A stretch of 64,000 nucleotides of DNA from Acidobacteriota bacterium (GCA_050259595.1 JBLNAX010000013.1:11364-75363), one strand, 5' to 3'; positions 3,581 to 21,228 are shown, counted from the first letter of the stretch. Program-made: numbers and translations. Notes: generated from the sequence alone by a model not told the origin.

Positions 3581-3657
3581 GGGTGATTAGCTCAGCCGGT
3601 TAGAGCGCTTGCCTCACATGCAAGAGGCCGTGGGTTCGAGTCCCTCATCGCCCACCA
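3581..3657 (+). tRNA. tRNA-Val (anticodon CAC)
   Basis: Cloverleaf with 7-bp acceptor stem GGGTGAT/ATCGCCC, anticodon stem CTTGC/GCAAG, loop CTCACAT, T-loop TTCGAGT and encoded CCA. One T-T mismatch in the T-stem. Confidence 0.8.
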
Positions 3658-3665
3658 TTGAAGAC

Positions 3666-3697
3666 AAAGCCTTCCGAGATTTCGGAAGGCTTTTTGT
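3666..3697 (+). terminator. Rho-independent terminator after tRNA-Val
   Basis: AGCCTTCCGA-GATT-TCGGAAGGCT hairpin followed by TTTTTGTATTTG. Confidence 0.8.
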
Positions 3698-3821
3698 ATT
3701 TGTTAGACATTATTGAAGCTTCACCTTGCCTGTTAATGCAGTTTAACAATATGATTATTGAAAGAGCCGTCATACATTCATATACTGAGGTAGCTGAGAA
3801 TGGATTACGAGGAGAATACAT

Positions 3822-4733
3822 ATGAATTGTCCCTATTGCAGTTCGGAAATCAATGATAACAGCCACTTCTGTCCGTTTTGTGGTAAAGAGCTTGTCAACG
3901 AAAGAAAGTGCGCATATTGCAGGACGGTGTTGGCAGACAACCAGGATACTTGTACTAAATGCGGCACCCGTGTGGGATTTCCAATGGCATCTGCAGCTGT
4001 GGTCGACCCTGGCCAACCTGACCGGAGTGAACCTGTTTATCAGACAATGGACCAAAATCAAACTGTGCGCTGTACATACTGCGGACAGCAGATCCTGGCG
4101 GGGCAGCCCTATTGTACAAAGTGCGGCACCCGAGTAGGGCGCATGACAGAACCCGTTGGGCCAGTCACTACCATGTCATCTCAGATGAATTCGCCTGTAC
4201 ATCCACCGAAAAGTGGATACGGAAATAAGGCGGCATTTACCCGAGGCGCCTATGCCGGGGTGGGAATGAGGTTTTTAGCTACGTTTATCGATTGCATAAT
4301 AGGGTCGATCACCTGGTTTATCATGATGTTTACTGGAGTGGTCATTTTGGTTATATATTTGGATATAAATTACAGCAGAAAACCAATTGACAGTGAAACG
4401 GGAATAGCTGTTCTTATTTCAACACTGGTGTGGTTTATTATAGGGGTGTTTTATTACATAGGTTTCGAGGCATTGGCTGGTGGTACGCTGGGCAAGTTGA
4501 TATGCGGAATGAGGATATTAAGAACCGACGGTTCAAAAATAGGATCGCGAGAAGCGGCATTAAGAACTGTGGCAAGAATAATCGACGGTATTTGCTTTTA
4601 CCTGTTGGCTGCACTATGTGTCTGGTTTACTGACAGCCGCCAGCGTTTGGGCGACATGATGGCTGATACGGTCGTTGTCTATAAGAAAAAGATAGATTTG
4701 AGCCAAGCTTCATTTGCAATGAAGCAATATTGA
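3822..4733 (+). CDS. zinc-ribbon repeat / RDD-family membrane protein
   Basis: Three CxxC...CxxC zinc-ribbon units (CPYCSSEI..CPFCG, CAYCRT..CTKCG, CTYCGQ..CTKCG), then an RDD-like polytopic domain (RGAYAG...FIDCIIG...). Confidence 0.7.
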   Translation: MNCPYCSSEINDNSHFCPFCGKELVNERKCAYCRTVLADNQDTCTKCGTRVGFPMASAAVVDPGQPDRSEPVYQTMDQNQTVRCTYCGQQILAGQPYCTKCGTRVGRMTEPVGPVTTMSSQMNSPVHPPKSGYGNKAAFTRGAYAGVGMRFLATFIDCIIGSITWFIMMFTGVVILVIYLDINYSRKPIDSETGIAVLISTLVWFIIGVFYYIGFEALAGGTLGKLICGMRILRTDGSKIGSREAALRTVARIIDGICFYLLAALCVWFTDSRQRLGDMMADTVVVYKKKIDLSQASFAMKQY

Positions 4734-4742
4734 TATAAGAAC

Positions 4743-5165
4743 TTACTCATTCTTTTCCACGACTAGAACTTGAACCAGCCGCAGGGGTGGCTTGGTATTC
4801 AACCTGCGATAAACTGAAGCAGAACGAAAGTATTTTGATAAGCCTGCTCTGATCAATCGTGGTTTGACAGGCTCGTATCCAAAGGGCTGAAGGATCACCT
4901 TGACCATTGTACCGACAGCTTGTTTGTTAAAGTCATTGGCCAGGTCGAATTCGGCTTGCTGGCCAAAATTGCCCTCAAGATCTACGATAACAGCGCCCAA
5001 GGCCGGATGCCCGGCATCAGAAGACAGAATCATCTTTTGGATGTTGGTGAGATCGGCTAAGAAATCGAAAATGCCCTGAGCTGAGCTGTTACCCTTGAGT
5101 CGACCATATTTACCATAGGCATCTAGGAAATCATTAAAGTCAAGAGTGCCGTTTTCATTCATCAT
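4743..5165 (-). CDS. hypothetical protein
   Basis: ORF with internal GAGGAG RBS 6 nt before ATGATG (MMNENGTLDF...). No recognisable family. Confidence 0.45.
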   Translation of the reverse strand: MMNENGTLDFNDFLDAYGKYGRLKGNSSAQGIFDFLADLTNIQKMILSSDAGHPALGAVIVDLEGNFGQQAEFDLANDFNKQAVGTMVKVILQPFGYEPVKPRLIRAGLSKYFRSASVYRRLNTKPPLRLVQVLVVEKNE

Positions 5166-5285
5166 TATCTCCTCAAAACTAAGTCTCAAAAATAAGTCTT
5201 ACTATTAAGGCTATGTATAATGGTAGGCTTTGTCAAGTGACACAATGAGAGAATCGTTGGCCGGTGTTGTGGAAACAACCCCTAC

Positions 5286-5314
5286 CTTGACAATAGCCGG
5301 ACTGATTCTTACAA
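5286..5314 (+). promoter_or_regulatory. promoter of the tRNA-Asp/Phe/Gly-SCIFF transcription unit (TTGACA-17-TACAAT)
   Basis: TTGACA at 5286-5291 and TACAAT at 5309-5314. tRNA-Asp begins at 5327. A second extended -10 (TGTATAAT) lies at about 5212. Confidence 0.55.
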
Positions 5315-5326
5315 TTATAAGAGCCC

Positions 5327-5403
5327 GGAGTTGTGGTGTAGTCGGTTAACATACTGGCCTGTCAAGCCAGAGACCGCGGGTTCGAGTCCCGTCAACTCCG
5401 CCA
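5327..5403 (+). tRNA. tRNA-Asp (GTC)
   Basis: Acceptor GGAGTTG/CAACTCC, anticodon stem CTGGC/GCCAG with loop CTGTCAA, T-loop TTCGAGT, GCCA end. Confidence 0.88.
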
Positions 5404-5407
5404 TTTT

Positions 5408-5483
<76 letters not shown>

Positions 5484-5489
5484 TTATGA

Positions 5490-5564
5490 GCGGGATTAGC
5501 TCAGTGGTAGAGCATCGGCTTCCCAAGCCGAGGGCCGCGGGTTCGAATCCCGTTTCCCGCTCCA
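5490..5564 (+). tRNA. tRNA-Gly (CCC)
   Basis: GCGGGATTAGCTCAGTGGTAGAGC..., anticodon stem TCGGC/GCCGA with loop TTCCCAA, T-loop TTCGAAT, TCCA end. Confidence 0.85.
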
Positions 5565-5600
5565 TACTTATTCTTCATCCGGTAATCAAGGGGTGAGATC

Positions 5601-5738
5601 ATGGGTAAACACGTTAACACAATCGTTGCGCCGGTACTTAAGAAAGGCGAAAACACCAACTGCAGAGAATGCCAGGCATCATGCCAATCAGCCTGCAAAA
5701 CATCATGCACAGTTGGCAATCAAGTATGTAAGAAATAA
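5601..5738 (+). CDS. scfA: SCIFF (six cysteines in forty-five residues) ribosomal peptide precursor
   Basis: 45-codon ORF MGKHVNTIVAPVLKKGENTNCRECQASCQSACKTSCTVGNQVCKK. It has exactly six Cys in 45 aa with the CxECQxSCQSACKTSC core. Strong RBS AAGGGGTGAG 6 nt upstream of the ATG. It is below the ORF-track length cutoff. Confidence 0.85.
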   Translation: MGKHVNTIVAPVLKKGENTNCRECQASCQSACKTSCTVGNQVCKK

Positions 5739-5795
5739 ACCCGTCCGACTAATGACAAAAGCGAATCTCTGCGTTATTAGAAACCCCCGTTTGAC

Positions 5796-6000
5796 GGCGA
5801 GCTGTTTCGCCTAATGCCGATGGAATCGAATCTGAGGCTTGCCGACAGATGAGCAGCGGCCAATCAACGTACTCATCAAAACGCCTGACGGCGCAGTGTC
5901 GCGCCAAATGCCGTAGGATCGAATCAGGCGCTTACAACTGATGAGCTACGGCTAATCACGGGGTTTCCTAATGCCTTGACCTTCACTCTTGTCATCAGCC
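5796..6000 (+). repeat. 2.3 tandem copies of a ~94-nt structured repeat (hairpin + AATGCCG + GGAATCGAATC-like block), possibly decayed tRNA fragments or a structured RNA
   Basis: Unit A at 5796 (GGCGAGCTGTTTCGCC TAATGCCGATGGAATCGAATCTGAGGC...GATGAG...CTCATC) and unit B at 5890 (GGCGCAGTGTCGCGCC AAATGCCGTAGGATCGAATCAGGCGC...CTGATGAG...TCATCAG). A partial third copy starts CCTAATGCC at about 5968. Confidence 0.6.
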
Positions 6001-6015
6001 TGATTGGTTAGTAAC

Positions 6016-6047
6016 GTAACCCGTGTAACGCGGGTTTTTTCTTTTTT
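6016..6047 (+). terminator. Rho-independent terminator ending the tRNA-SCIFF-repeat unit
   Basis: AACCCGTGTAACGCGGGTT followed by TTTTTCTTTTTTT. Confidence 0.85.
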
Positions 6048-6262
6048 TGCTGTGGGACAGATGTGTTCCGCTGGGCTAAACTGTTATCCGATGATGGATA
6101 GTTAGTTAAAAAGAGGGAAATAGCCAGTTTGTAGCGAATAGACAACAAAAATATAATCACACGAGCTAGCTTTCTTTGAAGTAATCATTTCGACCGCTCT
6201 TCTTGTTTTATTTGTTTTCCTGAGAGGCTTACGGAACAAAATCATATCCGGGGGGTTTATTG

Positions 6263-8875
6263 ATGAGCGATAGCCAGCAGGTCGTTGGCCACCTAACGCG
6301 TCAATACAGTATCAGGACCCTGGTTCTTTGCGCTTTGGGCAATGTGTTCTTTGGCTCTTTGTTCTGCATCTGGTATCATGTTGCGGATTTGCAGACCTGG
6401 ATACTTGTTGTTGTGGCAGCCATGGGCGGCGGCGTGGTTACAGCCGCGATCACGGTGAAGCTCAACATCAAGAGGTTCTTTGTGCCTATGGGGTTGATGC
6501 TGCATAATGTAAGTACAGTCGCTAAGGGTGATTTGAGGGATAACCTGTCCCAACACCATTTTGAGACGATGGATATCATGCGCGATGCACTGAGTAAGAT
6601 GGACACGGAAATCGTTAGATTGGTTTTTATGGTAACAGCTATTACGGGTGTAGTCGAGCAGTCGGCCAAACAATTAGGCGATGAGACGACTTCGACTAAT
6701 AATGTAGCTAGGGAGGTTTCACTGGCTATCGCTGAAGTGGCCAAGGGCGCCGCCGACCAAGACCTGGCGCTTCGCCAAATCGTCGAGGAGACCGAACGGA
6801 TAATAAGTAACATCAATATAATCGAAGAAGAGTCCAAGCAGCTTGCAGTAGGTTTTGAACAGGTCAAGGGCAGTATCGATGAAGGCTCTAAAGCTATTGA
6901 CCAGCAGCATGAGCGCTTGGAAAGCAACAGGCTGGTGATCAAGCAGATCAACCAGGCCATAACTGATTTGGCTCATAAGTCGCAAGAAATTGGCAATATC
7001 ATGGAGACCATTTCGGAAATAGCTGAGCAAACTAACCTGCTGGCCTTAAATGCATCTATTGAAGCGGCTCGCAGCGGCGAGCGCGGTCGCGGCTTTCAGG
7101 TCGTCTCTCAACAAGTGCGGAAATTGGCTGAAGAATCAGCACGGGCTGCGGTGGAAACCGGCAAGCTGACCGAAGGCATTAAAAAGAGTATACTGCAGGT
7201 CAAAACCGAAGCGCATGTGGCCGAAGAATCGGTCAGAGGGCAGGAGGAAGCCATCGAAGATAACCAGAAAGCCATTAAATCGGTTTTCACCAATATTCAA
7301 CAGATATTGGGCAGCCTTTTCAGACTGTCCGATCAGATTACCGATATTTCTAAATCGATCAATGATATGCTGGTCTCAGTGAGTCATGTTCGCGATGTGA
7401 CCGCAAAAACTTCCGATGGGGCCAATAAGATATCCACTACCGCCACCCGCCAGGCTGGGATTATGGAGCAGATCAAGGGGAAATCGATCGTCCTTTTACA
7501 TGATCTGGTTGAAGAATTAAAACAGACTACCAGCAAGTTCTCATTGCCGAAAGACTTGCAATTAGAAAAAGGGGCGGAGATAAAGCCCTTGAACCTGGAT
7601 GAATTAAAAGCGGTTGCCAAGCATTATCGAATCAAAACAGTTGTTTTTGCCGGGATCATGGGAACCGTTCTCTTCTCCTGGATCATTGCCCTGGTTGGGC
7701 AAGTTAATAATACTGAAGGATGGATCAAAGCTATTATTTGTACTGCGGCATCAGGAACGATTCTGGCCATCATTTCTACCTCCAATAATATAAAGGATTT
7801 CATTTTCCCAACGGCGGTTTTGGTAGAGTTTGCTGATGGTGTAGCCCAAGGTAATCTGAACCGCAACATAGATCAGCAGACAAGAATGGGTAAGCTGGAA
7901 ATGATCAAGGTCGAGTTTAATAACCTGCTTTCGGAAATGCGGGCCATTGCCAGTAATGTAAGAGACCACTGTATCGAGCTCCATGACGAAGCAGCCAAGA
8001 CTGTGGATATGGCTAATGAAACCTCTGTCAATGCTCAAGAGATAGGCATCACGGTGGGAGAGATCGCTCAAGGTGCTACTGACCAGGCAAGTGGTTTAAC
8101 AGATGCTTCGGCTGAACTTAGTCACATATTTAGCCATCTGGACTCCATAATGGGAACCATTTCACAGTTGACGCAATTCTCGGCAGAGACAGAGAGCACA
8201 GTTGACAATGCCTCACAAAATGCTGCTGTTCAAAAGAACAAAGTTGAACAAAATATGGGAGCCATCAATAAGGTGGCTGATGCAGTACGCGACCTCGAGG
8301 AAAAGTCAGCAGCGATCGGTCAGATAGTCGAGGTTATAACCACCATTGCTAGCGATACCAACCTATTGGCCCTGAACGCGGCTATTGAAGCGGCTAAGGC
8401 TGGAGTCGAGGGTCGGGGATTTGCAGTGGTAGCCAGTGAGGTGAAGAAATTAGCTGAAGAAACACTGGGTGCTGCCCAGAAGATATATGATTTGATAGAG
8501 GATATTCAAACCGGGACCAGAAAAGTAGTATCCGACATGGAGAATGCGCGCCAGGCCTTAAAGGACCAGGTCAAGGCGGTATACTTCAGTGAGCAGGTTC
8601 TGGAACAGGTCAATACACAAATGGGACCGATCAATATCAAGACTCGTGAATTGATCCAGAACTGCAACATAATGAATGGCGCCACCCAGCAGATCGCCCG
8701 AGATATCGAGAGTATCGCGGCGGCTAGCCAGGAGACGGCTGCCTCATCGCAAGAGGTTTCCGCTTCATCAGAAGAACAGGAGAGATTAGTGGAAAGCATG
8801 AAACATAATATGGAGCAGTTCGCAGTTCTCACAGACAAGCTTTATCGCCGGCTCTCCCGGTTGAACCTGGCCTAA
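6263..8875 (+). CDS. methyl-accepting chemotaxis protein with two complete TM-linker-MCP signalling modules (double MCP)
   Basis: Two copies of the MCP signalling core ([25 protein letters not shown] at about aa 255 and [25 protein letters not shown] at about aa 695). Each follows a hydrophobic pair and an xDGDLRE / AQGNLN linker. ATG at 6263 follows GGGGGG. Confidence 0.85.
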
Positions 8876-8897
8876 GTAAGTTAATTGAAGATTATTA

Positions 8898-8925
8898 AAA
8901 GAACCCCATTTGGGGTTCTTTTTTA
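8898..8925 (+). terminator. Rho-independent terminator
   Basis: GAACCCCATTTGGGGTTC followed by TTTTTT. Confidence 0.85.
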
Positions 8926-9097
8926 TGGAATCAGAACACATTGTCGTTGATTTTCTTTAATTGCTAGACAATTTATTTTCCTATAGAAGGTAATTTGTAA
9001 ATAAATAGAGAAATATACGCATATCTGCGTAATTTACCTTTTGGAAATTGTAATTTTATAAATGATTTCATTTGTGTTTCGAAGAGGAGGCAAAGAC

Positions 9098-11719
9098 ATG
9101 AATGATAGCCGGCAGCAAGTAGCTCGGTTGATTCGTCAGTATAAATATGTTACGCCTGTAGTATGCATGCTTCTCAATATTCCCTGGGGATTGCTCTTAT
9201 GTTGGTGGGCTGGTATCACTGGGGAGCATCGCACATACACGGTCATCATGGCTATGGCTGGCGGTATAGTAATAGCGTTACTGGTCATCCCCCTTAATTT
9301 AAAAAGGTTTTTTAAACCAATCAGCATTATGTTGGATCATGTTATAAATGTTGCCGATGGTGATTTGCGAGAAGATCTGGAAAAGTACGATTTCGATCAT
9401 TTGAATTTTATGAGAGATGCGCTGAACCGCATGGTGTTTGAGACCAGGCGGCTTGTTTTAATGGTCAGTGTCATCAATGGCAATGCCGAAACTAGCGGTA
9501 CCACACTGCGTGCGGAAGCCGAGAACACCAGTGTAGCGGCGTCCGAGATCGCTCGAGCTGTCAGTGAAGTGGCCAATGCCAATGGCGAGCAGGACCAAGC
9601 CCTGCAGTTGATCATTACGGAAACTGACCAAATAAGTACGATTGCTGAGCGTATTACTGGTCAGGCCCTGGCACTTGTTACAAATCTTGATGAATCTAAG
9701 GTGATTGTGAATAATGGTGTGGAGATGGTGCAGCAGCAGAAACAACACATGCTGACTAACCGCAGAATTATCAATGAGATAAATAAAGCCATATCAGATC
9801 TTTCTGTTAAGTCCCATGAAATAGGCGAAATCATGCAGGCCATTTCAGAAATAGCCGCACAGACAAATCTTTTGGCGTTGAACGCATCGATCGAGGCGGC
9901 ACGCAGTGGTGAACGCGGGCGTGGATTCCAGGTGGTAGCCCAGCAAGTCCGAAAATTAGCCGAGGAATCAGCTCGTGCGGCAGTCGAAACCGGAAGCTTG
10001 ACCGAGAGTATCAAAAACAGTATCAAGCAGGTAGTATTTGAAACGAAGGTGGCTGAGGAAACGGTCCTGGATCAGGAGGTAGCTATTGGCGAAAGCCAGA
10101 CGGTGATCAGTCAGGTCATGGATGATATTGGTGTCATTATTGCTGACATCAACCTGCTGTCCCAGGGTGTTGAAGAAATAGACTCGGCAATCAATCGTAT
10201 CGAGACCACCGTTCGGGACACTTCGGCGGTAACCTCACAAAACACGCAGTCATCACGGGAGATTGCTCTTACTGCTGACGAACAGGCCCGTTTGATGGAC
10301 AAATTTAAAATGGGTTCAAATTCACTAGGGGGACTGGTTCAGGAGCTCAAGGAGCAGGTAGCCAAATTCAAACTACCTGCTGGTTTTGACTGGAATAATG
10401 AAGTGGAATCCAAACTAGTCAGTGATGAAGACCTTAAAAACATCGCTAGAGTTTACCGCAAGAAAACAGTTATTTTATCAGGTGTGGCGGGCATGATCAT
10501 CTTTGCCCCTTTATTATATGGAGTAAGTGGTAAGCCTATATTAGCTGGCTTGGATACAGTTACCTTGATTAAGGCGACCATAATAGCTTTTATGTCAGGC
10601 TCGTTAGCTGCAATATTGTCGGCAACCAAGAATATCAAAGGCTTTATAATGCCCATGGGGGTAATCGCCAAATATGCAGACGCCATAGCACAAGGGGATC
10701 TCAGCCAACAGATTGGACCAGAACATAAAATGGGTAGCATAGAGTTCGTCCGTAATGAATTCAACAATCTTATTCAACATCTGGATCAAATCTCCCAAAG
10801 CATGAAAGACTGCTGTGTGCGCCTGCACAATGAGGCTGGTGATGCTCAAGGACTCGGTAATGAGACTGCTGTCACCGCCCGGCAAATGGCTACCAGTATC
10901 AACGAAATCGCACAAGGCGCTACTTTCCAAGCCCAGGGTATGATGGAAGCATCGGAGCAGGTCAATGAATTGTTCAGTTCACTGAAAAACATTGAAGAGT
11001 TCACAGCTATACTGTCAGTCCATTCCACAGAAGCGGCAGAAGTGGTGGAAAAGGGAGTCGCTAATACAACCGTTTTGAGGTCCAAAGCCGAACAGAATAT
11101 GGGGGCAGTTAATCGTGTAGCTGCTGCCGTTCGTGATCTAGAGGATAAATCGACTGCCATTGGGCAGATCGTTGAGGTTATCACGGCGATTGCTACTGAC
11201 ACCAATTTGCTTGCCCTTAATGCAGCTATAGAGGCTGCCCGGGCTGGCGAAGAAGGTCGGGGCTTCGCGGTCGTAGCCAGTGAGGTTAAGAAACTGGCTG
11301 AAGAGACACTGGCTGCGGCAGAAAAGATTTACGAACTGATTGGGCAGATCCAGAATGGGACAGAAAAAGTGGTCGGTGATATGGAAGCAGCCCGGAAATC
11401 ATTAGAAACTTTGGTGCAGGCCGTTTTCACCAGTCAGAATGTCATGGAACAGGTAGCCAACCGGCTGGGTCCTATCAGAAAAGAAACCCTTGTGATCATA
11501 GATGATTGTCAGGTCATGAACTCATCCACCGGGAGAATAGCCGGAAGCATACAAAGCATTGCGGCTGGTAGTCAGGAAACAGCAGCTGCTGCTGAGGAGG
11601 TACTGGCATCGACCGAGGAACAGGAACGGTCGGTAATCGGCGTTAACCAGAACTTGGAACAGTTTGCCGACTTAACCAATAAGCTTTATAGCCGTCTGCT
11701 CAAATTAAAGGTCAGCTAG
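9098..11719 (+). CDS. methyl-accepting chemotaxis protein, tandem paralog of the upstream double MCP
   Basis: Same two-module architecture as 6263-8875 ([44 protein letters not shown] is identical in block). Likely start is the ATG at 9098 after GAGGAGG; the ORF opens at 9062. Confidence 0.85.
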
Positions 11720-11744
11720 AAAAAGAATTCTTATATCAGCGTAG

Positions 11745-11776
11745 AAAAGCCCACCATTAGTGTGGGCTTTAATTTT
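11745..11776 (+). terminator. Rho-independent terminator
   Basis: GCCCACCATTAGTGTGGGC followed by TTTAATTTT. Confidence 0.75.
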
Positions 11777-11794
11777 GGCTTGGGGATATTAGGT

Positions 11795-11822
11795 TTGCCA
11801 TAAGCCGTATTTCGGCTAGAAT
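11795..11822 (+). promoter_or_regulatory. putative promoter for the rSAM maturase gene (TTGCCA-16-TAGAAT)
   Basis: Read by eye between the upstream terminator and the GTG start. Weak. Confidence 0.3.
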
Positions 11823-11868
11823 TATATGTGTGATACGGAAACAGGCTCTCTGAAAGGTTGGTTTTATT

Positions 11869-13260
11869 GTGGACAGCTTGACCCATCTCAAGAATTATAA
11901 TTTCTCGGCCAATATTCACCTTGTTGAGATTCAGGGCCAGTACCTGTTGTTAGATGTCAATTCAGGAGCGATCCATGTGCTCGATGAGGCTGCAGTCAGT
12001 TTTGTTAAGGGTTTACAGGAGAACGGCGGAGATTGGGATGCAGCCCGCACATCTTGCCTGCTCCACTTTGCTCCCCAAATAGTAGAAGAAATCGAGCAGG
12101 AGCTGCGGGAATCCATGAACAGCGGTTCTTTGTTCTCTGTGGAAGATGACTTGTCCACATTCAGTTATGAAGGAGCCGTTCCCAAAGCCTTGTGTCTTAA
12201 CGTGGCCCACGCCTGCAATATGCGCTGCAAATACTGTTTCGCTGGCCAGGGGACCTTCGGGGAGGAAGCCATGCTGATGAGTCGGGAGACTGCTTTCCGG
12301 GCTGTGGACTTCTTAATTGCAGCAAGCAAAGAACGCCGACACCTAGAGATAGATTTCTTTGGCGGTGAACCGTTGTTAAACTTCGATGTGCTAATAGCCA
12401 CTGTGGACTATGCGCGTCAAGAGGCAGCCCGTTCGGGTAAGGAGGTCGCACTGACCCTGACCACCAACTCACTGGACCTGGATCAGTCGGCCAGCCAGTA
12501 TCTGATCGATGAAGGGATCGCCATCATTGTAAGCCTAGACGGCCGGCAGTCAGTCAACGACTACATGCGTCCGGCGGCTGATGGCAGTGGTACCTACGAA
12601 CGGGTGCTGGCCAATATTCGCCGGATAATAGATATGAGTCCAGCAAGCTACTATGTCCGTGGCACCTTCACCGCACACAATCTGGACTTTGCGGAGGACT
12701 TCCGACATCTGGCTGAGCTCGGATTTACCAACATATCCCTGGAACCGGTTGTGGGCGGAGAAACTGGAATCTTGATTCAAGATCAGCACTTGCCGCATAT
12801 AATGAAAGAGTACGAGAAGATGGCAGATACTTTGCTGGAAATGCGAGGCCAAGGTCGGCATATAAATTTCTTTCATTTTAATCTGGATATGAACCGTGGG
12901 CCCTGCTTATCCAAGCGCTTGACGGGCTGCGGGGCCGGTGTTGAGTATCTGGCCGTAACTCCGGCCGGTGATCTTTATCCCTGCCACCAGTTCATCGGAC
13001 ACCAGGAGTTTCGCATAGGAAGCGTATTGCATGGTGTACAAAATCCGGAGCTGGTGAACAAGTTTGCACATAATACTCTGTTAGATAAAAAATGCCATAG
13101 ATGTTGGGCGCGTTTCTTCTGCGGGGGCGGCTGCCATGCTAGTGCGTTCTTTGCTAACCGTGATATAAGCGTGCCGAATGAGATAGCCTGCCAGATGCAT
13201 AAGAAGCGGTTGGAATGTGCATTTTACCTGGCAGCCAAGACAGGAGGCGGTTCTGATTAA
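11869..13260 (+). CDS. scfB: radical SAM/SPASM peptide maturase, probable SCIFF maturase
   Basis: CNMRCKYC (CxxxCxxC) rSAM cluster motif, FFGGEPLL and a C-terminal Cys-rich SPASM region (CGAG...CHRCWARFFCGGGC...C). About 100 aa of N-terminal leader-binding-like domain (IHLVEIQGQYLLLDVNSGAIHVLDE). 463 aa, the typical SCIFF-maturase size. Confidence 0.75.
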   Translation: MDSLTHLKNYNFSANIHLVEIQGQYLLLDVNSGAIHVLDEAAVSFVKGLQENGGDWDAARTSCLLHFAPQIVEEIEQELRESMNSGSLFSVEDDLSTFSYEGAVPKALCLNVAHACNMRCKYCFAGQGTFGEEAMLMSRETAFRAVDFLIAASKERRHLEIDFFGGEPLLNFDVLIATVDYARQEAARSGKEVALTLTTNSLDLDQSASQYLIDEGIAIIVSLDGRQSVNDYMRPAADGSGTYERVLANIRRIIDMSPASYYVRGTFTAHNLDFAEDFRHLAELGFTNISLEPVVGGETGILIQDQHLPHIMKEYEKMADTLLEMRGQGRHINFFHFNLDMNRGPCLSKRLTGCGAGVEYLAVTPAGDLYPCHQFIGHQEFRIGSVLHGVQNPELVNKFAHNTLLDKKCHRCWARFFCGGGCHASAFFANRDISVPNEIACQMHKKRLECAFYLAAKTGGGSD

Positions 13261-13780
13261 GAACTACCTGGCTTTTCTTAAAGTAGGGTTCCTAGGCTTT
13301 GGTGGCGGAGTAGCTATGCTGCCCCTGCTGGAGGAGATCGCCCGTGATCAAGCCCAGATAGATAGTGACGGGTTTGTGCAGATAGTGGCCATTTCCCAGA
13401 CCTTTCCCGGGCCTCTAGGAATCAATGCAGCCGGAATTCTAGGTTACCGTATAGGCGGGTGGATGGGCGCAGTACTGGCTATTCTGGGTATAGCCATACC
13501 CAGTTTTATGTGTGCGGCGGCCCTTTTCTACTTTCTGGGGTCGGTGGCCAAGTACAAATATCTGCAGGATGCGCTGCAGGCTTTAAAAGCAGCTCTTGTA
13601 GGTGTCGTTTTTGGAATGGTTGCTAATTTAGGGCGAAAGAGCTGGTCGGGAGTAATCGAATGTATGATAGGAATAGCGGCGGTGCTGCTATTTTACTTTT
13701 GTAGGGTAAATCCTATATGGCTACTGATAGGTGGGGGTTTTTTAGGACTAATACTACTATCCCACCGGCAGGAGGTGTAG
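13217..13780 (+). CDS. chrA: chromate transporter ChrA, short-chain N-terminal paralog
   Basis: LAFLKVGFLGFGGGVAMLPLL is the ChrA signature, about 6 TM. The GTG start overlaps the rSAM gene end and is uncertain. Confidence 0.75.
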   Translation: MHFTWQPRQEAVLIKNYLAFLKVGFLGFGGGVAMLPLLEEIARDQAQIDSDGFVQIVAISQTFPGPLGINAAGILGYRIGGWMGAVLAILGIAIPSFMCAAALFYFLGSVAKYKYLQDALQALKAALVGVVFGMVANLGRKSWSGVIECMIGIAAVLLFYFCRVNPIWLLIGGGFLGLILLSHRQEV

Positions 13781-13783
13781 AAA

Positions 13784-14311
13784 ATCTTATACACTCGTGT
13801 TTTTTTAACATTACTGAAGATAGGACTGTTGGGTTTTGGCGGTGGCTATATGATGATCCCGCTATTTTTCAGCGAAATGACTATTCGTCATCATTGGCTG
13901 ACCCATCGCCAAATGTTTGATATAATTGCTGTTTCGCAGACCGTTCCCGGCACTCTGGCTACTAACACAGCGACCTTGATCGGTCTGCATATGGGCAGTA
14001 TTCCGATCGCGATCGTGGCGGTACTGGGAATTATCACTCCATCATTGTTTTTTGCCTATATCGCTGATAAATATGTGGTTCCACATCTAGATAATCCAAG
14101 GGTGCAGAGTACATTAAAGGGCTTAGCAGCAGTGGTAGTAGGTATAATCCTGGGAGCCGGCTTGAACCTGATGAAGGCCGCAGTCACTGATATACCAACG
14201 ACTGCCATATCAGTAGTGGCGTTCCTTCTGTTTTTCTGGCGGCGAATAAATGCGGGAGCCGCCATGATAACGGCATCTTTGATCGGCATCGCGCTAATTA
14301 ACATTTATTAG
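13784..14311 (+). CDS. chrA: chromate transporter ChrA, second short-chain half
   Basis: LLKIGLLGFGGGYMMIPL is the ChrA signature. The frame is continuous with the upstream chrA across a single TAG at 13778-13780. No ATG/GTG/TTG lies before the conserved motif. A possible ATC start at 13784 sits 6 nt after GGAGGTG. Confidence 0.6.
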   Translation: MLYTRVFLTLLKIGLLGFGGGYMMIPLFFSEMTIRHHWLTHRQMFDIIAVSQTVPGTLATNTATLIGLHMGSIPIAIVAVLGIITPSLFFAYIADKYVVPHLDNPRVQSTLKGLAAVVVGIILGAGLNLMKAAVTDIPTTAISVVAFLLFFWRRINAGAAMITASLIGIALINIY

Positions 14312-14395
14312 TGGGAGGAGATTGATTTTGACCGTCGAAACCTTAAAAAGCGTCCCAAAATGGCGTCCTAAACTGTCAGAATTGGAGATCTTATT

Positions 14396-15748
14396 ATGCC
14401 AAATATTCTAAGAAAGAAGGAATATCTGCTTACTGCAATAGGATTTGCGGGCTTAGCGGTGATAATCCTCCTTATCCTGGTGCTTCAGGGAAAGACAACA
14501 GCATATAGTGTGAAAATCAACGATAAAGAGATCTTGATAGCCAAAGATTCAGAACTAGTCAAGGACCATATTGCCAAAATATGTACAGAGGAACAAAAAA
14601 AGATAGGGCACAAAGTCAACTTGACCGGCAGCATTACATATGACACTATGTTAGTCGATGAAGACAAGCTCACCAGCACAAAACAAATCTACCCCATTCT
14701 CAAACAAGCTCTTCTGTTAAAAACTAGTGCCGCCGCGATCGTGGTCAATGGCAAGCCGGCGGTATATGTTGCAGATGTTGCTACTGCAGAAAAGATACTT
14801 AAAACTCTTAAAAACGACTACTCATCATGCAATTCCCAGGAAAAAATCGATAAATCAAGCTTTTGTGAAGAGGTAAAAGTTAAGAATTGTAAAATCGAAA
14901 CAGAATATGTTTATCCATCAGATGAGGCCCTCACTCTGCTGAAGACCGGGACCAGAACCCCGATCATCTATACTGTTAAAGAAGGCGACTCCCTATGGGT
15001 GATCGCTCGTTTGCACGACATGCATGTTTCCGAGATCAAGGAAGCCAACGGGCTCAGGTCGGAGAACCTGCAGCTAGGGCAGAAACTTGCTTTAAGTGAG
15101 ACCAAGCCTTTTGTAAACGTGGAGACGGTTATCAATGGGCGAGAGACGGAGACCATCCCCTACGAGACCCGGATAGTGGTGGATCGTTCTCTCAAGTATT
15201 TAACCAAAGTGAAACAAAAGGGTGAGGATGGCGAGAAACAGGTCGCCTATACTCTGATAAAGCGCAACGGTCAAATCACGCAGAGAAAGGTCTTATCACA
15301 GGAGGTAACCAAAAAACCGATAGACCAGATAATCGCCCGCGGTAAAAAAGTTAAACAGCCGGTTATGGTGGCTTCCCGTGGTAGCTTTATCGGCGGATTT
15401 TCCTGGCCTATATTCGGCAGCATAACCTCTGGATATGGATCACATAGAGGGCATACAGGCATCGACATAGATGGCGAGACTGGCGATCCTATCCATGCTG
15501 CCAAGAATGGGGTCGTTGAATATGCAGGTCGTGATGGCAGTTATGGTCTGATGATCATAATCGATCATGGCGGTGTAAAGACCCGCTATGCTCACTGCTC
15601 CAAAATACTGGTCAAAGCAGGTCAATCAGTCACTAAGGGTCAGACTATAGGCAAGGTGGGGTCAACTGGCCACAGCACTGGATCGCACCTCCACTTTGAG
15701 GTCATTCGCGGAGGGTCATTTAATAACCCCTTACGTTACCTTAGATAA
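14396..15748 (+). CDS. LysM domain / M23 family peptidoglycan metalloendopeptidase, membrane anchored
   Basis: N-terminal TM, LysM (YTVKEGDSLWVIARLHDMHVSEIKEANGL) and a C-terminal M23 domain (HTGIDIDGETGDPIHAAKNG...GSTGHSTGSHLHFEV). Confidence 0.85.
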   Translation: MPNILRKKEYLLTAIGFAGLAVIILLILVLQGKTTAYSVKINDKEILIAKDSELVKDHIAKICTEEQKKIGHKVNLTGSITYDTMLVDEDKLTSTKQIYPILKQALLLKTSAAAIVVNGKPAVYVADVATAEKILKTLKNDYSSCNSQEKIDKSSFCEEVKVKNCKIETEYVYPSDEALTLLKTGTRTPIIYTVKEGDSLWVIARLHDMHVSEIKEANGLRSENLQLGQKLALSETKPFVNVETVINGRETETIPYETRIVVDRSLKYLTKVKQKGEDGEKQVAYTLIKRNGQITQRKVLSQEVTKKPIDQIIARGKKVKQPVMVASRGSFIGGFSWPIFGSITSGYGSHRGHTGIDIDGETGDPIHAAKNGVVEYAGRDGSYGLMIIIDHGGVKTRYAHCSKILVKAGQSVTKGQTIGKVGSTGHSTGSHLHFEVIRGGSFNNPLRYLR

Positions 15749-15772
15749 CATCTATTAGAAAGAGCCATAACC

Positions 15773-15803
15773 AGCGGCATCCACAGGGTGCCGCTTATTT
15801 GTT
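15773..15803 (+). terminator. Rho-independent terminator
   Basis: AGCGGCATCCACAGGGTGCCGCT followed by TATTTGTTTG. Confidence 0.7.
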
Positions 15804-15886
15804 TGCCAGGGCTTATCCATTAATTGCCGCGTCCTTTGCCTGTCCCCAGGTAGTATAATAGGGGGCGGGAAGGGAGAGGCATTGTT

Positions 15887-16753
15887 GTGTTGGGGACGAG
15901 AACACTGCAAATGCTGGTTAAACTGGTATCTGGTTTAACCATTGCATTTTTGGTAGTATTAACTGTGAGTTTGGTGCGGTCACCGCGCCAGGCTATTTTT
16001 GGAATCAGTCGGTATTTGTCCAGAGAAAACACCAGTATCCGGACAAAGGACCTGAGCGAAGTCAGGACACCGCATTTCACAATCAAATATCACGATGAGA
16101 ATAAAACCAGTATACCTATAATAGCCGCCAATGTTGAGGAGATCTATGGCCCGGTGACCAGGATATTCGGCAGCGAACCGAATGAAAAGACACTCATTGT
16201 AGTTTATCCTGACTCAGAAAGTTTGGCAAAAAGTTTTGGCTGGGATAAGAATGAACGGGCAATGGGCGTATATTGGGGTGGGACCATTCGTGTTTTGGAT
16301 CCCCAGCAGTGGATCAACGCTGGTGATGTCAAAATGGAATTTACCAAGCAAGGGCCCATGGCCCATGAGTTTACGCACCTTATGGTCGACTATTATACAC
16401 AGGGAAATTATCCACGCTGGTTTACTGAAGGAATTGCTCAATATGTGGAAAGAATAATAACAGGATTTGAATTCTCTCCGCCATTCAGTTATAATTCTCA
16501 ATCAGTGACATATTACGATTTCACAGCGATGGAAAACGGTTTTGACACTCTTGACCAGAGGATCGTGTATTGGGAAAGTCTGCGGGCGGTACAGTATATT
16601 GCCGATAAATATGGTGAAAAGACACTGTTCTCAATAATGACCAATCTCGGTCTAGGGTATGAAATGCCCACGGCGTTTGTCAAAGCAACAGGTGTAACAT
16701 TTGTCGATTTTGCTCAAGATTTTTATACCTTTTTGGATAAAAATCCTCAATAA
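15887..16753 (+). CDS. membrane-anchored putative zinc metallopeptidase (HExxH, peptidase MA-like)
   Basis: GTG start after GGGAGAGG. N-terminal TM and a HEFTHLMVDYY...WFTEGIAQY motif. Confidence 0.55.
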   Translation: MLGTRTLQMLVKLVSGLTIAFLVVLTVSLVRSPRQAIFGISRYLSRENTSIRTKDLSEVRTPHFTIKYHDENKTSIPIIAANVEEIYGPVTRIFGSEPNEKTLIVVYPDSESLAKSFGWDKNERAMGVYWGGTIRVLDPQQWINAGDVKMEFTKQGPMAHEFTHLMVDYYTQGNYPRWFTEGIAQYVERIITGFEFSPPFSYNSQSVTYYDFTAMENGFDTLDQRIVYWESLRAVQYIADKYGEKTLFSIMTNLGLGYEMPTAFVKATGVTFVDFAQDFYTFLDKNPQ

Positions 16754-16793
16754 TAATATTTAAAGGCGAACTATGAACGGGCGAGGAGGTACA

Positions 16794-18047
16794 TTGGTGC
16801 AGAATACCCTTGTAATTGAAGGTGGGCACCGCCTGTCCGGCAGTGTCCGGGTAAGCGGGGCCAAAAACGCAAGTCTAGTCATAATTGCCGCCAGTATCAT
16901 GGCCCATGGCAAGACGGTTTTGGAAAATGTCCCTAAGATCAAGGACGTAGAAGTCCTTGTGGACATACTTAAGCACATTGGAGTGAAGGTTCATTGGAAT
17001 GGGGAAGGGCTTCTGGAAGTCGAAGCCCCTGACAATATGATCCCGGAAACTCCCTATGAATTGTCGAAAAAGCTAAGAGCATCCAACCTACTGCTCGGTT
17101 CATTGATGGGCCGTATGCGTGAGGCTCGGATCTGCTTGCCAGGTGGCTGTGATATCGGGTCGCGGCCGATGGATCTACATCTCAAGGGACTTCAGGCTAT
17201 GGGAGCCAAGGTCAGCCTGGATCATGGCTTTATTGAGGCGAATGCCACCATACTGCAGGGAAGTCGGGTATACTTGGATTTTCCCAGTGTAGGAGCTACC
17301 GAAAACATTATGATGGCTGCTGCAACAGTACCTGGACAAACCACTATTGAAAACGCGGCTAAGGAGCCGGAAATCGTAGACCTGGCCAACTTCCTAAATG
17401 CTATGGGAGCCAGGATACGAGGAGCCGGAACGGACCTGATCAAGATCGATGGGGTCGAATACCTCAAAGCGACCCGCTATGCGGTCATACCTGATCGTAT
17501 TGAAGCTGGAACTTTTATGGCGGCCGCCACCATAACCGGCGGTGACATTTTGATAGAAAACGTTATTCCTACGCATCTGCATCCAATAAAAGCTAAGTTG
17601 GAAGAGACCGGGGCGATAATTACATCAGAACAAGGCGGCATAAGGGTCAAAGGGACAGGCCGTATCCTGCCGGTCGATATAAAGACCCTGCCCTATCCTG
17701 GTTTCCCCACTGATATGCAGTCGCAAATGATGGCACTATTATCTGTTGCTCAGGGAACCAGTGTGATTGTAGAAAACATTTTTGAGAATCGTCTCCAGAT
17801 GGCAGATGAGATCAAAAGAATGGGTGCCAAGATCAAGGTCGAAGGCCATACAGCGGTAGTAGAAGGGGTCGATAGGCTCAACGGTGCTAAGGTCAAGGCT
17901 ACCGACCTCCGAGCCGGAGCAGCACTGGTGCTAGCCGCACTGGTAGCTGATGGGGTAACTGAAATCGAATCAGCCCAATATATTTATCGCGGTTATGAGA
18001 AAATCAAAGAAAAGCTGACCAATATAGGAACCAAAGTACTTTCATAG
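16794..18047 (+). CDS. murA: UDP-N-acetylglucosamine 1-carboxyvinyltransferase
   Basis: VIEGG...GAKNA...LPGGCDIGSRPMDLH... are MurA hallmarks. The ORF opens at the ATG at 16773, but GGAGG at 16784 favours the TTG at 16794 or GTG at 16797 start. Confidence 0.92.
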   Translation: MVQNTLVIEGGHRLSGSVRVSGAKNASLVIIAASIMAHGKTVLENVPKIKDVEVLVDILKHIGVKVHWNGEGLLEVEAPDNMIPETPYELSKKLRASNLLLGSLMGRMREARICLPGGCDIGSRPMDLHLKGLQAMGAKVSLDHGFIEANATILQGSRVYLDFPSVGATENIMMAAATVPGQTTIENAAKEPEIVDLANFLNAMGARIRGAGTDLIKIDGVEYLKATRYAVIPDRIEAGTFMAAATITGGDILIENVIPTHLHPIKAKLEETGAIITSEQGGIRVKGTGRILPVDIKTLPYPGFPTDMQSQMMALLSVAQGTSVIVENIFENRLQMADEIKRMGAKIKVEGHTAVVEGVDRLNGAKVKATDLRAGAALVLAALVADGVTEIESAQYIYRGYEKIKEKLTNIGTKVLS

Positions 18048-18187
18048 ACTATTGACAAATTCGCAGGCGTATGACGGAAGTGAAGGTCAAGGCGTTAGGA
18101 AAGACAGCGATTGAGGCGTACTTGGGGTACGTTGATTGAACGGGATTTTCGAAACAACGCAGAGATTCGCTTTTGTCATACGCCTGA

Positions 18188-19756
18188 TTAATTATTGGGG
18201 AGGACAATGTTCACGACAGTGCCCTCCTTTTCTTTGCTCTTGATTTGAATATTGCCGTTCAGGCTCTCTACGATCTGTTCACAAATAGTTAGACCTAGAC
18301 CTGAACTGCCCTTGTTAGTCGAGAAGAAAGGTTCGAAGATATTGTCCATCAAATCATTGCTGATGCCCATTCCGCTGTCGGCTACCTGCAGTGTTGTCGA
18401 ACCCCGGCCGCTAAGGGTCTTGATGGTAAGGACTCCTCCGTTAGGCATAGCATTTAGTGCATTGGAAACCAGATTCGTCAGCAGCACTTTCAATTTATCC
18501 TCGTTAGCTCGGATGGTGGCCAGGCGCTTGTCCAAATACAATTCGATCCAGATATTGAACTGCTGGGCCATTAATTCTATAGAGGGATAGAGATCAGTGA
18601 TTATCTCATTGATGTTGACATGATAAGTTTGTCCCAGATAATTTTGCGACAGCATCTGAATGTCCTTGATAGCCAACTCGATGTTTACGATCTCATCATC
18701 CAGCAGCTCCCAGGGTAAATCGTCCGGCCGATTCTTGTATAGTTGAAGAAATCCCTTGATAGTTGTCAGCGGGTTGCGGACCTTATGTACGGTTTCCTCA
18801 ACTACACTGGAAATAAGGCTGATCCGCTCACGCTTGTTATGCTTTTTCTGCCAATCGATGAAGGTCATAGTGCTTTGCATGATGGCGACCGCTCCGATGG
18901 GAGCTCCTGTGTTGTCCAGCAGCTGCTTGGTGTCAACTAGATAGGAGCTCTTTTTGCCATGCCGTTCCGGTGAATTGATAGTAATGCCGCGGTAATTGGT
19001 CCCTTCAAACATAGTAGTAAACAGTAGGCTGGACAAAGCCGGGAGGTGCTTATCGAGCACGTTTACCGACCTTCCCTCATAACTGGCAGATGAAGCGCGT
19101 AAGATTTGTTCTGCGGCTTGATTGACCACATTGATCTTACCGCTGCCATCGATCACGATGGCTGGCCAGGGCACCTGTTCTAGGACCGCATTAGCCAGGC
19201 TTCCTTGAGTCGGTAATGACTTTACTTCAGGCTCGGCTACCAGGATGATCCTGCTGCTGCTGACATTAACCGTTATCTCAAGCGGCACACGGATGCCGGA
19301 ACCATTATATATACTAACTCGGTAATTCTGAATATTGCAGGGGTTTTTTCTCCAGGAACGGACCTTCTCATACTCTTCGGCTTCCAATACCTTGCGCAGT
19401 AGTGATGTGATGCTGCGACCAAGTATTTGGCCTAGCGGCATGGCCAGTAATTCTACCATTTCCTGATTAACATCAGTGATATGGCCGTCGACGTCGATCA
19501 ACAACGCACCAGCCGAAAACCAGCGAAATCCGCCTGTTTGGGTGGGATATTCTAAACCATATGGCCGATTATTTGACACTTGTACCAACAGTTTTCCCCC
19601 TTCTGTTGGATTGCATATCAATTTAATACACTTCGCACTATATTCCACCAAAACAGGGGCTATTCCTCCAACGAAAGATGACTTATTTTGTTCTAGAATA
19701 GGGTTTTGGCGGGGGTGGTTGCCATAATGCCCGTATAAATCGGAATTTTCAGGCAT
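18188..19756 (-). CDS. cytoplasmic PAS-domain sensor histidine kinase (KinA-like), orphan
   Basis: H-box VHKVRNPLTTIKGFLQL, N-box LVSNALNAM, G-boxes DSGMGI and GLGLTI. Two PAS-like segments. No adjacent response regulator. Start uncertain; an alternative TTG at 19588 follows AAGGGGGA. Confidence 0.8.
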   Translation of the reverse strand: MPENSDLYGHYGNHPRQNPILEQNKSSFVGGIAPVLVEYSAKCIKLICNPTEGGKLLVQVSNNRPYGLEYPTQTGGFRWFSAGALLIDVDGHITDVNQEMVELLAMPLGQILGRSITSLLRKVLEAEEYEKVRSWRKNPCNIQNYRVSIYNGSGIRVPLEITVNVSSSRIILVAEPEVKSLPTQGSLANAVLEQVPWPAIVIDGSGKINVVNQAAEQILRASSASYEGRSVNVLDKHLPALSSLLFTTMFEGTNYRGITINSPERHGKKSSYLVDTKQLLDNTGAPIGAVAIMQSTMTFIDWQKKHNKRERISLISSVVEETVHKVRNPLTTIKGFLQLYKNRPDDLPWELLDDEIVNIELAIKDIQMLSQNYLGQTYHVNINEIITDLYPSIELMAQQFNIWIELYLDKRLATIRANEDKLKVLLTNLVSNALNAMPNGGVLTIKTLSGRGSTTLQVADSGMGISNDLMDNIFEPFFSTNKGSSGLGLTICEQIVESLNGNIQIKSKEKEGTVVNIVLPNN

Positions 19757-20111
19757 TAACAGTCTTTTGAAAGGAGACTTCCCGCGAAAAAACCAATAAA
19801 TAGGATTAGTGCGCTGTGCCGTGTGATGGCCGATTCGACGGGATTTGTGGGAAGGTTGACAGCGATGGGGAAATTCTTCTGATTTTTATTAATTTCAGGT
19901 ATTATTCGTTAACGTACCAAGATTGCTTTCGCTTTTCGGGGAAAATAGCAGGAATAAGGCGAAATTGAGCGCTATGGCCAACCTCTTGCAATGCCCGGTT
20001 TACCGAATCTGTAGATATCATGCTGCGTCCTGACAAGTACTCAGAGCTATTTCCTAAAAGTACATATAAGTCGAAAACTAATCTCATACTAAGCTAAAAC
20101 GGAGGCCAAGT

Positions 20112-21179: not shown

Positions 21180-21198
21180 ACATTAAAGACATCTTATT

Positions 21199-21228
21199 CC
21201 GGGGCAGCAGTGTCCCGGTTTTAATTTG
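21199..21228 (+). terminator. Rho-independent terminator
   Basis: CCGGGGCAGCAGTGTCCCGG followed by TTTTAATTTGTT. Confidence 0.75.

Follow-up and report, generated by a model that had tools for sequence, protein, structure and literature searches.

The SCIFF ranthipeptides are made by gene pairs in which scfA encodes the precursor peptide and scfB its thioether-forming radical S-adenosylmethionine (SAM) maturase, such as CteA/CteB of Clostridium thermocellum and Tte1186a/Tte1186 of Caldanaerobacter. The two genes of known systems lie within about 500 nt of each other, and the 234 radical-SAM genes retrieved within 500 bp of a SCIFF gene were all scored as ScfB (PMC5300114). The scfA-scfB locus described here lies in a 64,000-nt stretch of DNA labelled Acidobacteriota bacterium (GCA_050259595.1, JBLNAX010000013.1:11364-75363), which is referred to as the window. 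Its precursor is also 45 amino acids long, with a CxxCxxxCxxxCxxxC...C core that includes Cys32, Thr34 and Thr37, and its maturase likewise possesses the CxxxCxxC motif, the SPASM cysteines and an N-terminal peptide-binding domain. In contrast to the known pairs, the genes are 6.1 kb apart, with three terminators and two unrelated genes between them. This separation, noted in a preliminary description of the sequence, measures 6,130 nt from the scfA stop codon to the scfB start, beyond the distance of about 500 bp taken as adjacency, and both products pass their family models. The locus is a known system in an atypical gene order and not a new system; it is probably an ordinary ScfA/ScfB system whose genes were pulled apart, in one Syntrophomonadaceae-like sub-lineage, by the insertion of methyl-accepting chemotaxis protein (MCP) genes and of a repeat.

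The features of the locus, in window coordinates, are as follows.

5287-5315, plus strand: sigma-70-like promoter, TTGACA-17-TACAAT, before the tRNA cluster and scfA (11/12 consensus matches)
5327-5564, plus strand: tRNA-Asp(GTC), tRNA-Phe(GAA) and tRNA-Gly(CCC) (ARAGORN, Rfam)
5601-5738, plus strand: scfA, SCIFF ranthipeptide precursor, 45 amino acids (TIGR03973, PF13165)
5739-6016, plus strand: W1, an interspersed repeat in the form of an imperfect palindrome, 278 nt, separating the scfA stop codon from the terminator
6018-6045 (stem 6018-6036 plus T-run), plus strand: predicted intrinsic terminator of the tRNA-scfA transcript (8-bp stem, scan)
6263-8875, plus strand: MCP1, double-module chemoreceptor, 870 amino acids (two PF00015 stretches)
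8900-8925, plus strand: predicted intrinsic terminator after MCP1, AGAACCCCA-TT-TGGGGTTCT plus T-run (read from the sequence)
9098-11719, plus strand: MCP2, double-module chemoreceptor, 873 amino acids (two PF00015 stretches, HAMP_2 match)
11746-11780 (stem region 11746-11770), plus strand: predicted intrinsic terminator after MCP2 (9-bp stem and T-rich tail, scan)
11795-11822, plus strand: promoter-like site for scfB, TTGCCA-16-TAGAAT (10/12 consensus matches)
11869-13260, plus strand: scfB, SCIFF thioether-forming radical SAM/SPASM maturase, 463 amino acids (TIGR03974, alignment with CteB)
13217-14311, plus strand: two short genes of the chromate-transporter family, chrA-like (PF02417, 128 and 121 bits)

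The precursor gene scfA

The product of scfA scores above the cut-offs of both SCIFF models (TIGR03973, 64.5 bits against 50; PF13165, 69.6 against 27). The open reading frame (ORF) 5601-5738 translates as MGKHVNTIVAPVLKKGENTNCRECQASCQSACKTSCTVGNQVCKK and contains six cysteines, at positions 21, 24, 28, 32, 36 and 43, with conserved spacing in the C-terminal half; its core, SCQSACKTSCTVGNQVC, has the same letters as in many members of the family. The mature peptide is predicted to carry one or more Cys-to-Thr (non-alpha) thioether bridges, as in the SCIFF family. An exact look-up of the 45 amino acids in protein records returned no record, and genes as small as this are often left uncalled. 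Compared with the nearest relative of the locus (contig L082), the gene shows 17 synonymous and three non-synonymous codon differences, all three within the leader, a pattern which indicates that scfA remains under purifying selection.

The start codon of scfA lies 36 nt from the 3' end of tRNA-Gly(CCC). The consensus scan gave no other promoter-like site between 5287-5315 and scfA, and the hexamers of this promoter are present at the equivalent place in L082. Since scfA is so close to tRNA-Gly, the sole upstream promoter-like site precedes tRNA-Asp and the layout of L082 is alike, scfA most likely forms the 3' end of a tRNA operon.

The association of scfA with this tRNA extends to other loci. 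A tRNA-Gly(CCC) is located just upstream of scfA and on the same strand in 13 of the 77 scfA matches from the fetched loci and the window, the gap being about 36 nt in the window and up to a few hundred nt elsewhere. The loci concerned are the window (5490-5738), L001, L002, L023, L030, L033, L044, L071, L082 and L084-87, and their labels include Thermosyntropha/Syntrophomonadaceae, Thermincola and Peptococcaceae, among others. In such loci, a tRNA transcript may include the mRNA of the SCIFF peptide as its tail. The glycine codons of scfA are not GGG, so that an obvious codon link to tRNA-Gly(CCC) is absent.

The maturase gene scfB

The preliminary description had assigned to 11869-13260 a radical-SAM protein with a CxxxCxxC motif, a SPASM cysteine cluster and an N-terminal domain, and had proposed scoring it with TIGR03974. 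Against this model, an equivalog for the SCIFF maturase with a cut-off of 425 bits, ScfB reaches 499.2 bits, and all three structural elements are confirmed. Residues 11-456 align with the solved maturase CteB (5WGG; E = 3e-126), the N-terminal domain being covered. The radical-SAM motif, C116-NMR-C120-KY-C123, is aligned to the motif of CteB; the SPASM domain scores 66.5 bits against TIGR04085 (cut-off 27), and every cysteine of the C-terminal clusters aligns with CteB. The N-terminal precursor-recognition domain, which resembles a RiPP (a peptide synthesized ribosomally and modified post-translationally) recognition element, is defined by sequence alignment of residues 11-109 with residues 2-100 of 5WGG. 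An NCBI record with a protein identical to the window ScfB is also named SCIFF peptide maturase. ScfB is thus a bona fide SCIFF maturase by the curated model, and thioether catalysis on ScfA is predicted.

Organization of the spacer

Between scfA and scfB lie, in order, the 278-nt structured stretch, a terminator, MCP1, a terminator, MCP2, a terminator and the promoter-like site. The terminator at 6018-6045, which the preliminary description had called strong, is homologous to a hairpin directly 3' of scfA in L082, and a hairpin with a T-run stands at the same place in L083. The terminator after MCP1 was missed by the scanner because this needs a loop of at least 3 nt. Read-through into scfB is unlikely because three terminators intervene. 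The candidate scfB promoter pointed out earlier at 11795-11822 is retained: its -35 and -10 hexamers are the same in L082, whereas the spacer between them and the surrounding bases differ.

The two terminator-flanked MCP paralogs of the preliminary description are present, each with two MCP signalling stretches, although their start coordinates had to be corrected (6263 and 9098). The proteins score 224.8 and 216.7 bits against PF00015, with two stretches in each protein and four hydrophobic segments arranged in two pairs. MCP1 consists of a transmembrane hairpin, a linker of HAMP length and an MCP signalling domain, twice in succession, with hydrophobic pairs at residues 17-67 and 457-506; a HAMP model match was obtained only in the second module of MCP2. 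MCP2 is 85% identical over its full length to the single MCP of L082 and is therefore its ortholog, and the upstream region is conserved too. MCP1 matches MCP2 at 48% identity and the L082 MCP at 49%; the L082 locus therefore has no ortholog of MCP1.

Upstream of MCP2 (window 8990-9030; L082 1125-1160) a sequence TAAA-N16-CGCATAT, with CGTTTAT in L082, loosely resembles a sigma-D/sigma-28 flagellar promoter.

Comparison with other ScfB loci

Eighty ScfB loci from GTDB species representatives were compared, with scfA located by a small hidden Markov model (HMM); three are cut by a contig end, which leaves 77 informative loci. The GTDB scan with ScfB gave only relatives of at most 50% identity, and closer ones were obtained by protein search and contig look-ups. 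The earlier statement that a SCIFF gene is almost always next to its maturase agrees with this sample, where scfA lies within 400 nt of scfB in 66 of the 77 loci and within 560 nt in two more. Genes are inserted between scfA and scfB in 2/77: a Clostridium sp. (L066) has a 4.2-kb insertion with regulator and ABC-transporter genes, and a Ruminococcus sp. (L069) has a 1.6-kb insertion with a TIR-domain gene that overlaps scfB and is probably co-transcribed with it. Seven further loci, all from Selenomonadales (L028, L036, L047, L050, L056, L068 and L073), have no scfA or SCIFF-like ORF in the fetched DNA, which reaches 2.9-10 kb upstream of scfB. The five exceptional ScfB proteins that were scored (three of the seven Selenomonadales, L066 and L069) all pass TIGR03974. 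The splitting of scfA from scfB is thus rare and not unique.

Closer relatives, for which the preliminary description had asked whether the pair is contiguous and whether the MCP genes are inserted, show both states. Their ScfB proteins are identical to that of the window at 80% (L082), 62% (L083), 59% (L191) and 57% (L084-87 and L188). In L083, L084-87, L188 and L191, scfA is found 100-220 nt upstream of scfB, and L190 is a contig cut just upstream of a ScfB that is the same as that of L191, and it has the same genes downstream. L084-87, which come from a Syntrophomonadaceae metagenome-assembled genome (MAG), and L188 have the gene order DUF2232-rplI-purA-scfA-scfB-chrA-chrA-LysM/G5/M23 peptidase-peptidase MA-murA, and the flanks of the window follow it too. 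L082 carries on a single contig scfA, a terminator, one MCP gene and scfB, followed by the same downstream genes, and is collinear with the window except for window 5744-8944, which has no counterpart.

MCP genes are found in the scfA-scfB spacer only in the window and in L082, its nearest relative. Because L082 has the MCP2 ortholog and the relatives at 57-62% keep the compact order, the comparison places the entry of an MCP gene in an ancestor that the window organism and L082 share, later than the divergence from the 62% relative. Uncoupling of the pair by insertion of chemotaxis genes, with the maturase gaining a promoter of its own, was one of two readings in the preliminary description and is the one that synteny favours. 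The MCP insertion sits downstream of the scfA hairpin, and a hairpin after scfA exists also in unsplit relatives (with a T-run in L001 and L083, weaker in L084); since these already carry it, transcriptional coupling of scfA to scfB may have been partial before the insertion.

Taken as a sequence of events, the ancestral order would have been purA-(tRNA-Gly)-scfA-hairpin-scfB-chrA-chrA. Double-module MCP genes of a family expanded in this lineage would have been inserted into the spacer behind the scfA hairpin and, at a later step, the 278-nt W1 copy would have come to lie after the scfA stop codon and before the terminator. In the present arrangement scfA would be transcribed from 5287-5315 as the tail of the tRNA-Asp/Phe/Gly operon, ending at 6018-6045; each MCP gene would form a separate unit bounded by a terminator, and a dedicated promoter at 11795-11822, which is conserved, would drive scfB along with the two chrA-like genes. 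ScfB would act in trans on ScfA, its N-terminal domain binding the leader and the Cys-to-Thr thioether being formed as by CteB. Adjacency of the genes would not be required, because the maturase recognises its substrate through the leader-binding domain.

An independent Logan contig (L081) is 100% identical to the window over 5795-22183 and thus spans W1 (from 5795), MCP1, MCP2 and scfB. Several points weigh against the account just given. For the junction of scfA with the left arm of W1 there is only one assembly, since L081 begins within the repeat. As the source is a MAG, a second scfA or scfB could lie elsewhere in the genome, and none was found among the 120 listed ScfB relatives. The promoter scan returned 14 sites where 13.1 are expected in shuffled sequence, and promoters and terminators alike are consensus matches. 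MCP1, an older paralog, may have been either added in the window lineage or lost in L082. Finally, it could be selection and not accident that has preserved an MCP gene in the scfA-scfB spacer of two species.

The palindromic repeat

The preliminary description had reported a tandem structured repeat of about 94 nt after scfA. The tandem units, of about 93 nt (5786-5879 and 5880-5972), are real, with 65 of 96 aligned positions identical and an alignment score of 29 against -11.5 +/- 4.5 (maximum 5) in 1000 shuffles; they are not a dedicated feature of the locus, since they form the inner part of an inserted interspersed element, W1. The units were seen only by a seed-based repeat search and pairwise alignment, and Tandem Repeats Finder reported no array at 5786-5972. 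A second and canonical copy, W2, occurs in the window, and others were found in related sequences.

18059-18191, minus strand: W2, canonical repeat copy, 133 nt, between murA and a histidine-kinase gene (covariance model R1)
L084, 13968-14072 and 19840-19965: further repeat copies
L153, 1294-1425 and 8602-8733: further repeat copies
Contigs L101, L106, L118, L127, L131, L148, L150, L162 and L171: further repeat copies

In its canonical form the repeat, about 120 nt long, is imperfectly palindromic, with an outer stem CAGGCCG ATGAC ... GTCAT CGGCCTG and inner arms, AAAAGCGAATCTCTGCGTTG and CGCCTTGATCTTCACTCC, that are nearly invariant across species. Its interior consists of a variable, co-varying stem followed by an apical hairpin between two CTCAATC motifs, and the apical region may be missing (97 nt) or hold up to 150 nt of nested modules. 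W2 scores 134.7 bits against covariance model R1 (E = 7.6e-31), and the arms of W1 match those of W2; the apical region of W1 is enlarged by two modules of about 70 nt, each preceding a YAATC motif. The proposed hairpin pairs in 87.5% of cells, compared with about 35% when the partners are slid, and ten pairs are altered on both sides. Against shuffles the repeat folds with z-scores of -5.8 to -9.6 overall, those of W2 on the two strands being -5.8 and -8.1.

The covariance model matches two copies each in the window (64 kb), L084 (21 kb) and L153 (13 kb), one in L082, which is degraded and occupies the orthologous site between murA and the kinase gene, and one at the end of contig L187, from the same sequencing run and with the same NCBI label as the window. 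Other ScfB loci of Firmicutes, 1.3 Mb in all, gave no copy with this model. A scan of metagenome contigs for the arm gave 93 matches, mostly chance matches within genes, of which about 17 are true copies when a second arm or a covariance-model match is required; two viral scans gave chance matches only. At the gathering threshold Rfam has no match to the repeat (in the window it matches four tRNAs only), and a search of 5560-6300 at E <= 10 returned only a terminator-like chance match.

Copies sit in narrow spaces between genes, and their orientation with respect to these genes is mixed, roughly 7 to 4. Alignment shows that W1 is absent at the scfA site of L082 and L083; in the window it is flanked on both sides by AACCCG direct repeats, and the terminator stem was rebuilt from duplicated bases. 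A related mini-element between MCP and scfB in L082, which the window lacks, is flanked by GGCTT. These direct repeats amount to two cases only, both short. Assemblies break at the repeat, L081 starting in W1 and L187 ending in a copy.

Small palindromic repeats of bacteria include ERIC/IRU, Correia/NEMIS, RUP, REP/BIME and miniature inverted-repeat transposable elements (MITEs). The repeat resembles ERIC, Correia, RUP, REP and MITE elements in being an imperfect palindrome of about 120 nt, non-coding and multi-copy; in occupying short intergenic sites, often after stop codons or between convergent genes; and in showing presence/absence polymorphism, size variants by internal insertion and short flanking direct repeats. 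It differs from them in having no Rfam relation and in being found so far only in a Syntrophomonadaceae-like clade and related metagenome contigs, and also in the contrast between its innermost arms, which scarcely vary from species to species, and its outer and apical stems, which co-vary. No partner transposase has been identified for it, no search aimed at one having been made. Its best reading is a clade-specific interspersed palindromic element of the MITE/ERIC kind. A literature search on Syntrophomonas repeats found nothing, and this undescribed family, in which the core is conserved and the stems co-vary, is a by-product perhaps more interesting than the gene split.

Three other readings of the repeat were rejected. 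The hammerhead reading, suggested by CUGAUGAG and CGAA strings in the units, fails for want of a match to any ribozyme model, the string lying inside a simple hairpin. Coding capacity, suggested by an ATGAC start on both strands, is contradicted by single-base indels between copies. A strand-specific RNA finds no support: 34 A-C mismatches stand against 20 G-U pairs on the canonical strand, the opposite strand folds better, and the orientation is mixed. An integron attC site and an IS200/IS605 end were also considered as candidates for the palindrome.

W1 could alternatively be a cis-acting regulatory RNA, for example a tandem ligand- or protein-binding domain controlling either the terminator at 6018-6045, with read-through into MCP1, or the stability of scfA mRNA. 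Its position between the ORF and the terminator would suit such a role, as would the two similar units, two stems of which show compensatory differences (such as AUCUG/CAGAU versus AUCAG/CUGAU), the ability of segment 5781-5797 to pair with the 3' arm of the terminator, the fold z-score of -3.0 and the rebuilding of the terminator following the insertion. Single units, however, are no better folded than shuffles (z-scores of -1.8 and -1.4), A-C mismatches outnumber G-U pairs on the transcribed strand, and Rfam offers no family. The nearest relative has the same genes without the element at this site, copies elsewhere stand in either orientation and often between convergent genes, and MCP1 starts 215 nt past the terminator end. 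This alternative is unlikely; a regulatory role of W1 in the 3' untranslated region of scfA, whether through stability of the mRNA or through control of the terminator, is possible, though unsupported.

The double-module chemoreceptors

MCP1 and MCP2 belong to a family of which at least nine paralogs, 35-48% identical, are found on contigs that share the NCBI MAG label or the sequencing run of the window, often as tandem pairs at unrelated loci without SCIFF genes. Family members are also found under the NCBI MAG label of L188, where scfA and scfB adjoin. In the 80 other ScfB loci, no MCP relative was found within up to 10 kb on each side (tblastn with the C-terminal half of MCP2, E <= 1e-10), and a general association of SCIFF loci with MCP genes was rejected on this result. 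Because the family is expanded at SCIFF-free loci, L188 is unsplit and the other ScfB loci are free of MCP genes, the evidence points to an opportunistic insertion into the scfA-scfB spacer and not to a functional SCIFF-MCP module.

The opposite view would hold that scfA, the MCP genes and scfB form a selected module, in which the receptors sense the mature SCIFF peptide or share a signalling pathway with it. It could appeal to the retention of the MCP2 ortholog between scfA and scfB in two species, and to the lack of a periplasmic ligand domain in these MCPs. In addition to the distribution of the family, the terminator of each gene speaks against it, since the genes would not form one operon, and such a module is very unlikely. 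A more specific version, that the MCPs are kept because they sense the mature ranthipeptide or the membrane state that it causes while W1 tunes the amount of precursor, is given slightly less credence still. If true, it would supply a receptor and a behavioural output for SCIFF, whose role in Clostridia stays largely unknown.

Like transmembrane MCPs without a periplasmic domain, the window proteins possess a transmembrane hairpin and a signalling domain with a conserved hairpin-tip motif, but they differ in that two complete modules are fused in a chain of about 870 amino acids. The halves of double-module MCPs are 26-30% identical (relatives P0121-P0144 and P0155-P0177), and single-module relatives of about 430 amino acids match either the N-terminal or the C-terminal half, which suggests that two genes were fused to give a covalent pseudo-heterodimer receptor. 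An exhaustive HMMER search of 1.84 billion representatives gave about 38 clusters (50% identity) of full-length double-module MCPs of about 870 amino acids, and a literature search on double-module MCPs found no paper on such an architecture. This small, clade-restricted family of chemoreceptors is a second by-product that is perhaps more interesting than the gene split.

Substrate of the maturase and integrity of the assembly

The second reading of the preliminary description was that the radical-SAM enzyme serves another substrate, being orphaned from ScfA or maturing a different, unrecognised peptide. It draws on the distance of scfB from scfA, on the seven Selenomonadales loci with no scfA in the fetched upstream DNA, on the TIGR03974 score of the window ScfB, the lowest of the seven proteins scored, and on the existence of an exception model, NF040492 ('not_ScfB'), which NCBI maintains for ScfB-like orphan maturases. 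That lowest score nevertheless clears the ScfB cut-off, whereas ScfB reaches 445.9 bits against NF040492, far under its cut-off of 855. Orthologs in the unsplit relatives adjoin scfA in the same neighbourhood, and scfA in the window is intact and, by its codon differences, under purifying selection. No second SCIFF gene or other Cys-rich SCIFF-like ORF besides scfA was found in the 64-kb window, and the 150-nt gap before scfB contains only the terminator and the promoter-like site. Another substrate is therefore highly improbable, and ScfA is preferred as the substrate of ScfB.

Lastly, a chimeric join in the MAG at the repeated element, where assemblies are seen to break, is the least credible explanation and can practically be dismissed, as L082, a single contig from a different MAG, contains scfA, MCP and scfB without the element, L081 spans most of the split, and the flanks on either side are collinear with the relatives.

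Flanking genes

The first chrA-like gene overlaps the 3' end of scfB, and because of this overlap the chrA-like pair is probably in the scfB operon. The pair also follows scfB in L082-L087, L188 and L190; scfB overlaps or abuts it in all close relatives, and distant ScfB loci lack it. The only distant exception for a chromate-transporter match is L073, about 9 kb downstream. The pair may export the peptide or may simply be a neighbour. A general association of scfB with chromate-transporter-like genes was rejected, the arrangement being confined to this sub-clade.

In the window, the interval separating purA from scfA (3581-5315) is likewise enlarged relative to the unsplit relatives, as seen against L084 (9590-9740) and L188. 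The additions are tRNA-Val, an RDD-family membrane protein with a double zinc ribbon (3822-4733), a 148-amino-acid ORF on the minus strand (4743-5189) with no family match, tRNA-Asp and tRNA-Phe. The whole purA-scfB interval appears to be an insertion hot spot.

NCBI labels of the window proteins and their closest relatives (P0001, P0002, P0007, P0012 and P0026) name Acidobacteriota, Candidatus Saccharibacteria, Ignavibacteriales, Chitinophagales and Solirubrobacterales. The labels of the batch GCA_0502589xx/GCA_0502593xx look wrong, since gene content and synteny match Syntrophomonadaceae MAGs.

Comparison with known SCIFF systems

Genome mining for RiPPs, SCIFF peptides included, relies on adjacency of precursor and maturase, and the window together with about 12% of the comparison loci shows that a fixed distance misses real pairs. 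Like the window, L066, L069 and the Selenomonadales loci have a ScfB whose scfA is not adjacent. The window differs from the two loci with insertions in its cargo, MCP genes, where L066 has regulator and ABC-transporter genes and L069 a TIR-domain gene, and it differs from L069 also in that each unit has its own terminator whereas the inserted gene of L069 overlaps scfB. Judging from this arrangement, ScfB is evidently able to work from a separate transcription unit. In the window, unlike known SCIFF systems, scfA would be carried on a tRNA operon and scfB would head an operon with two chromate-transporter-like genes; the locus may thus be considered a natural case of independently set levels of precursor and enzyme, with a strong tRNA-operon promoter predicted for the peptide and a separate promoter for the enzyme.

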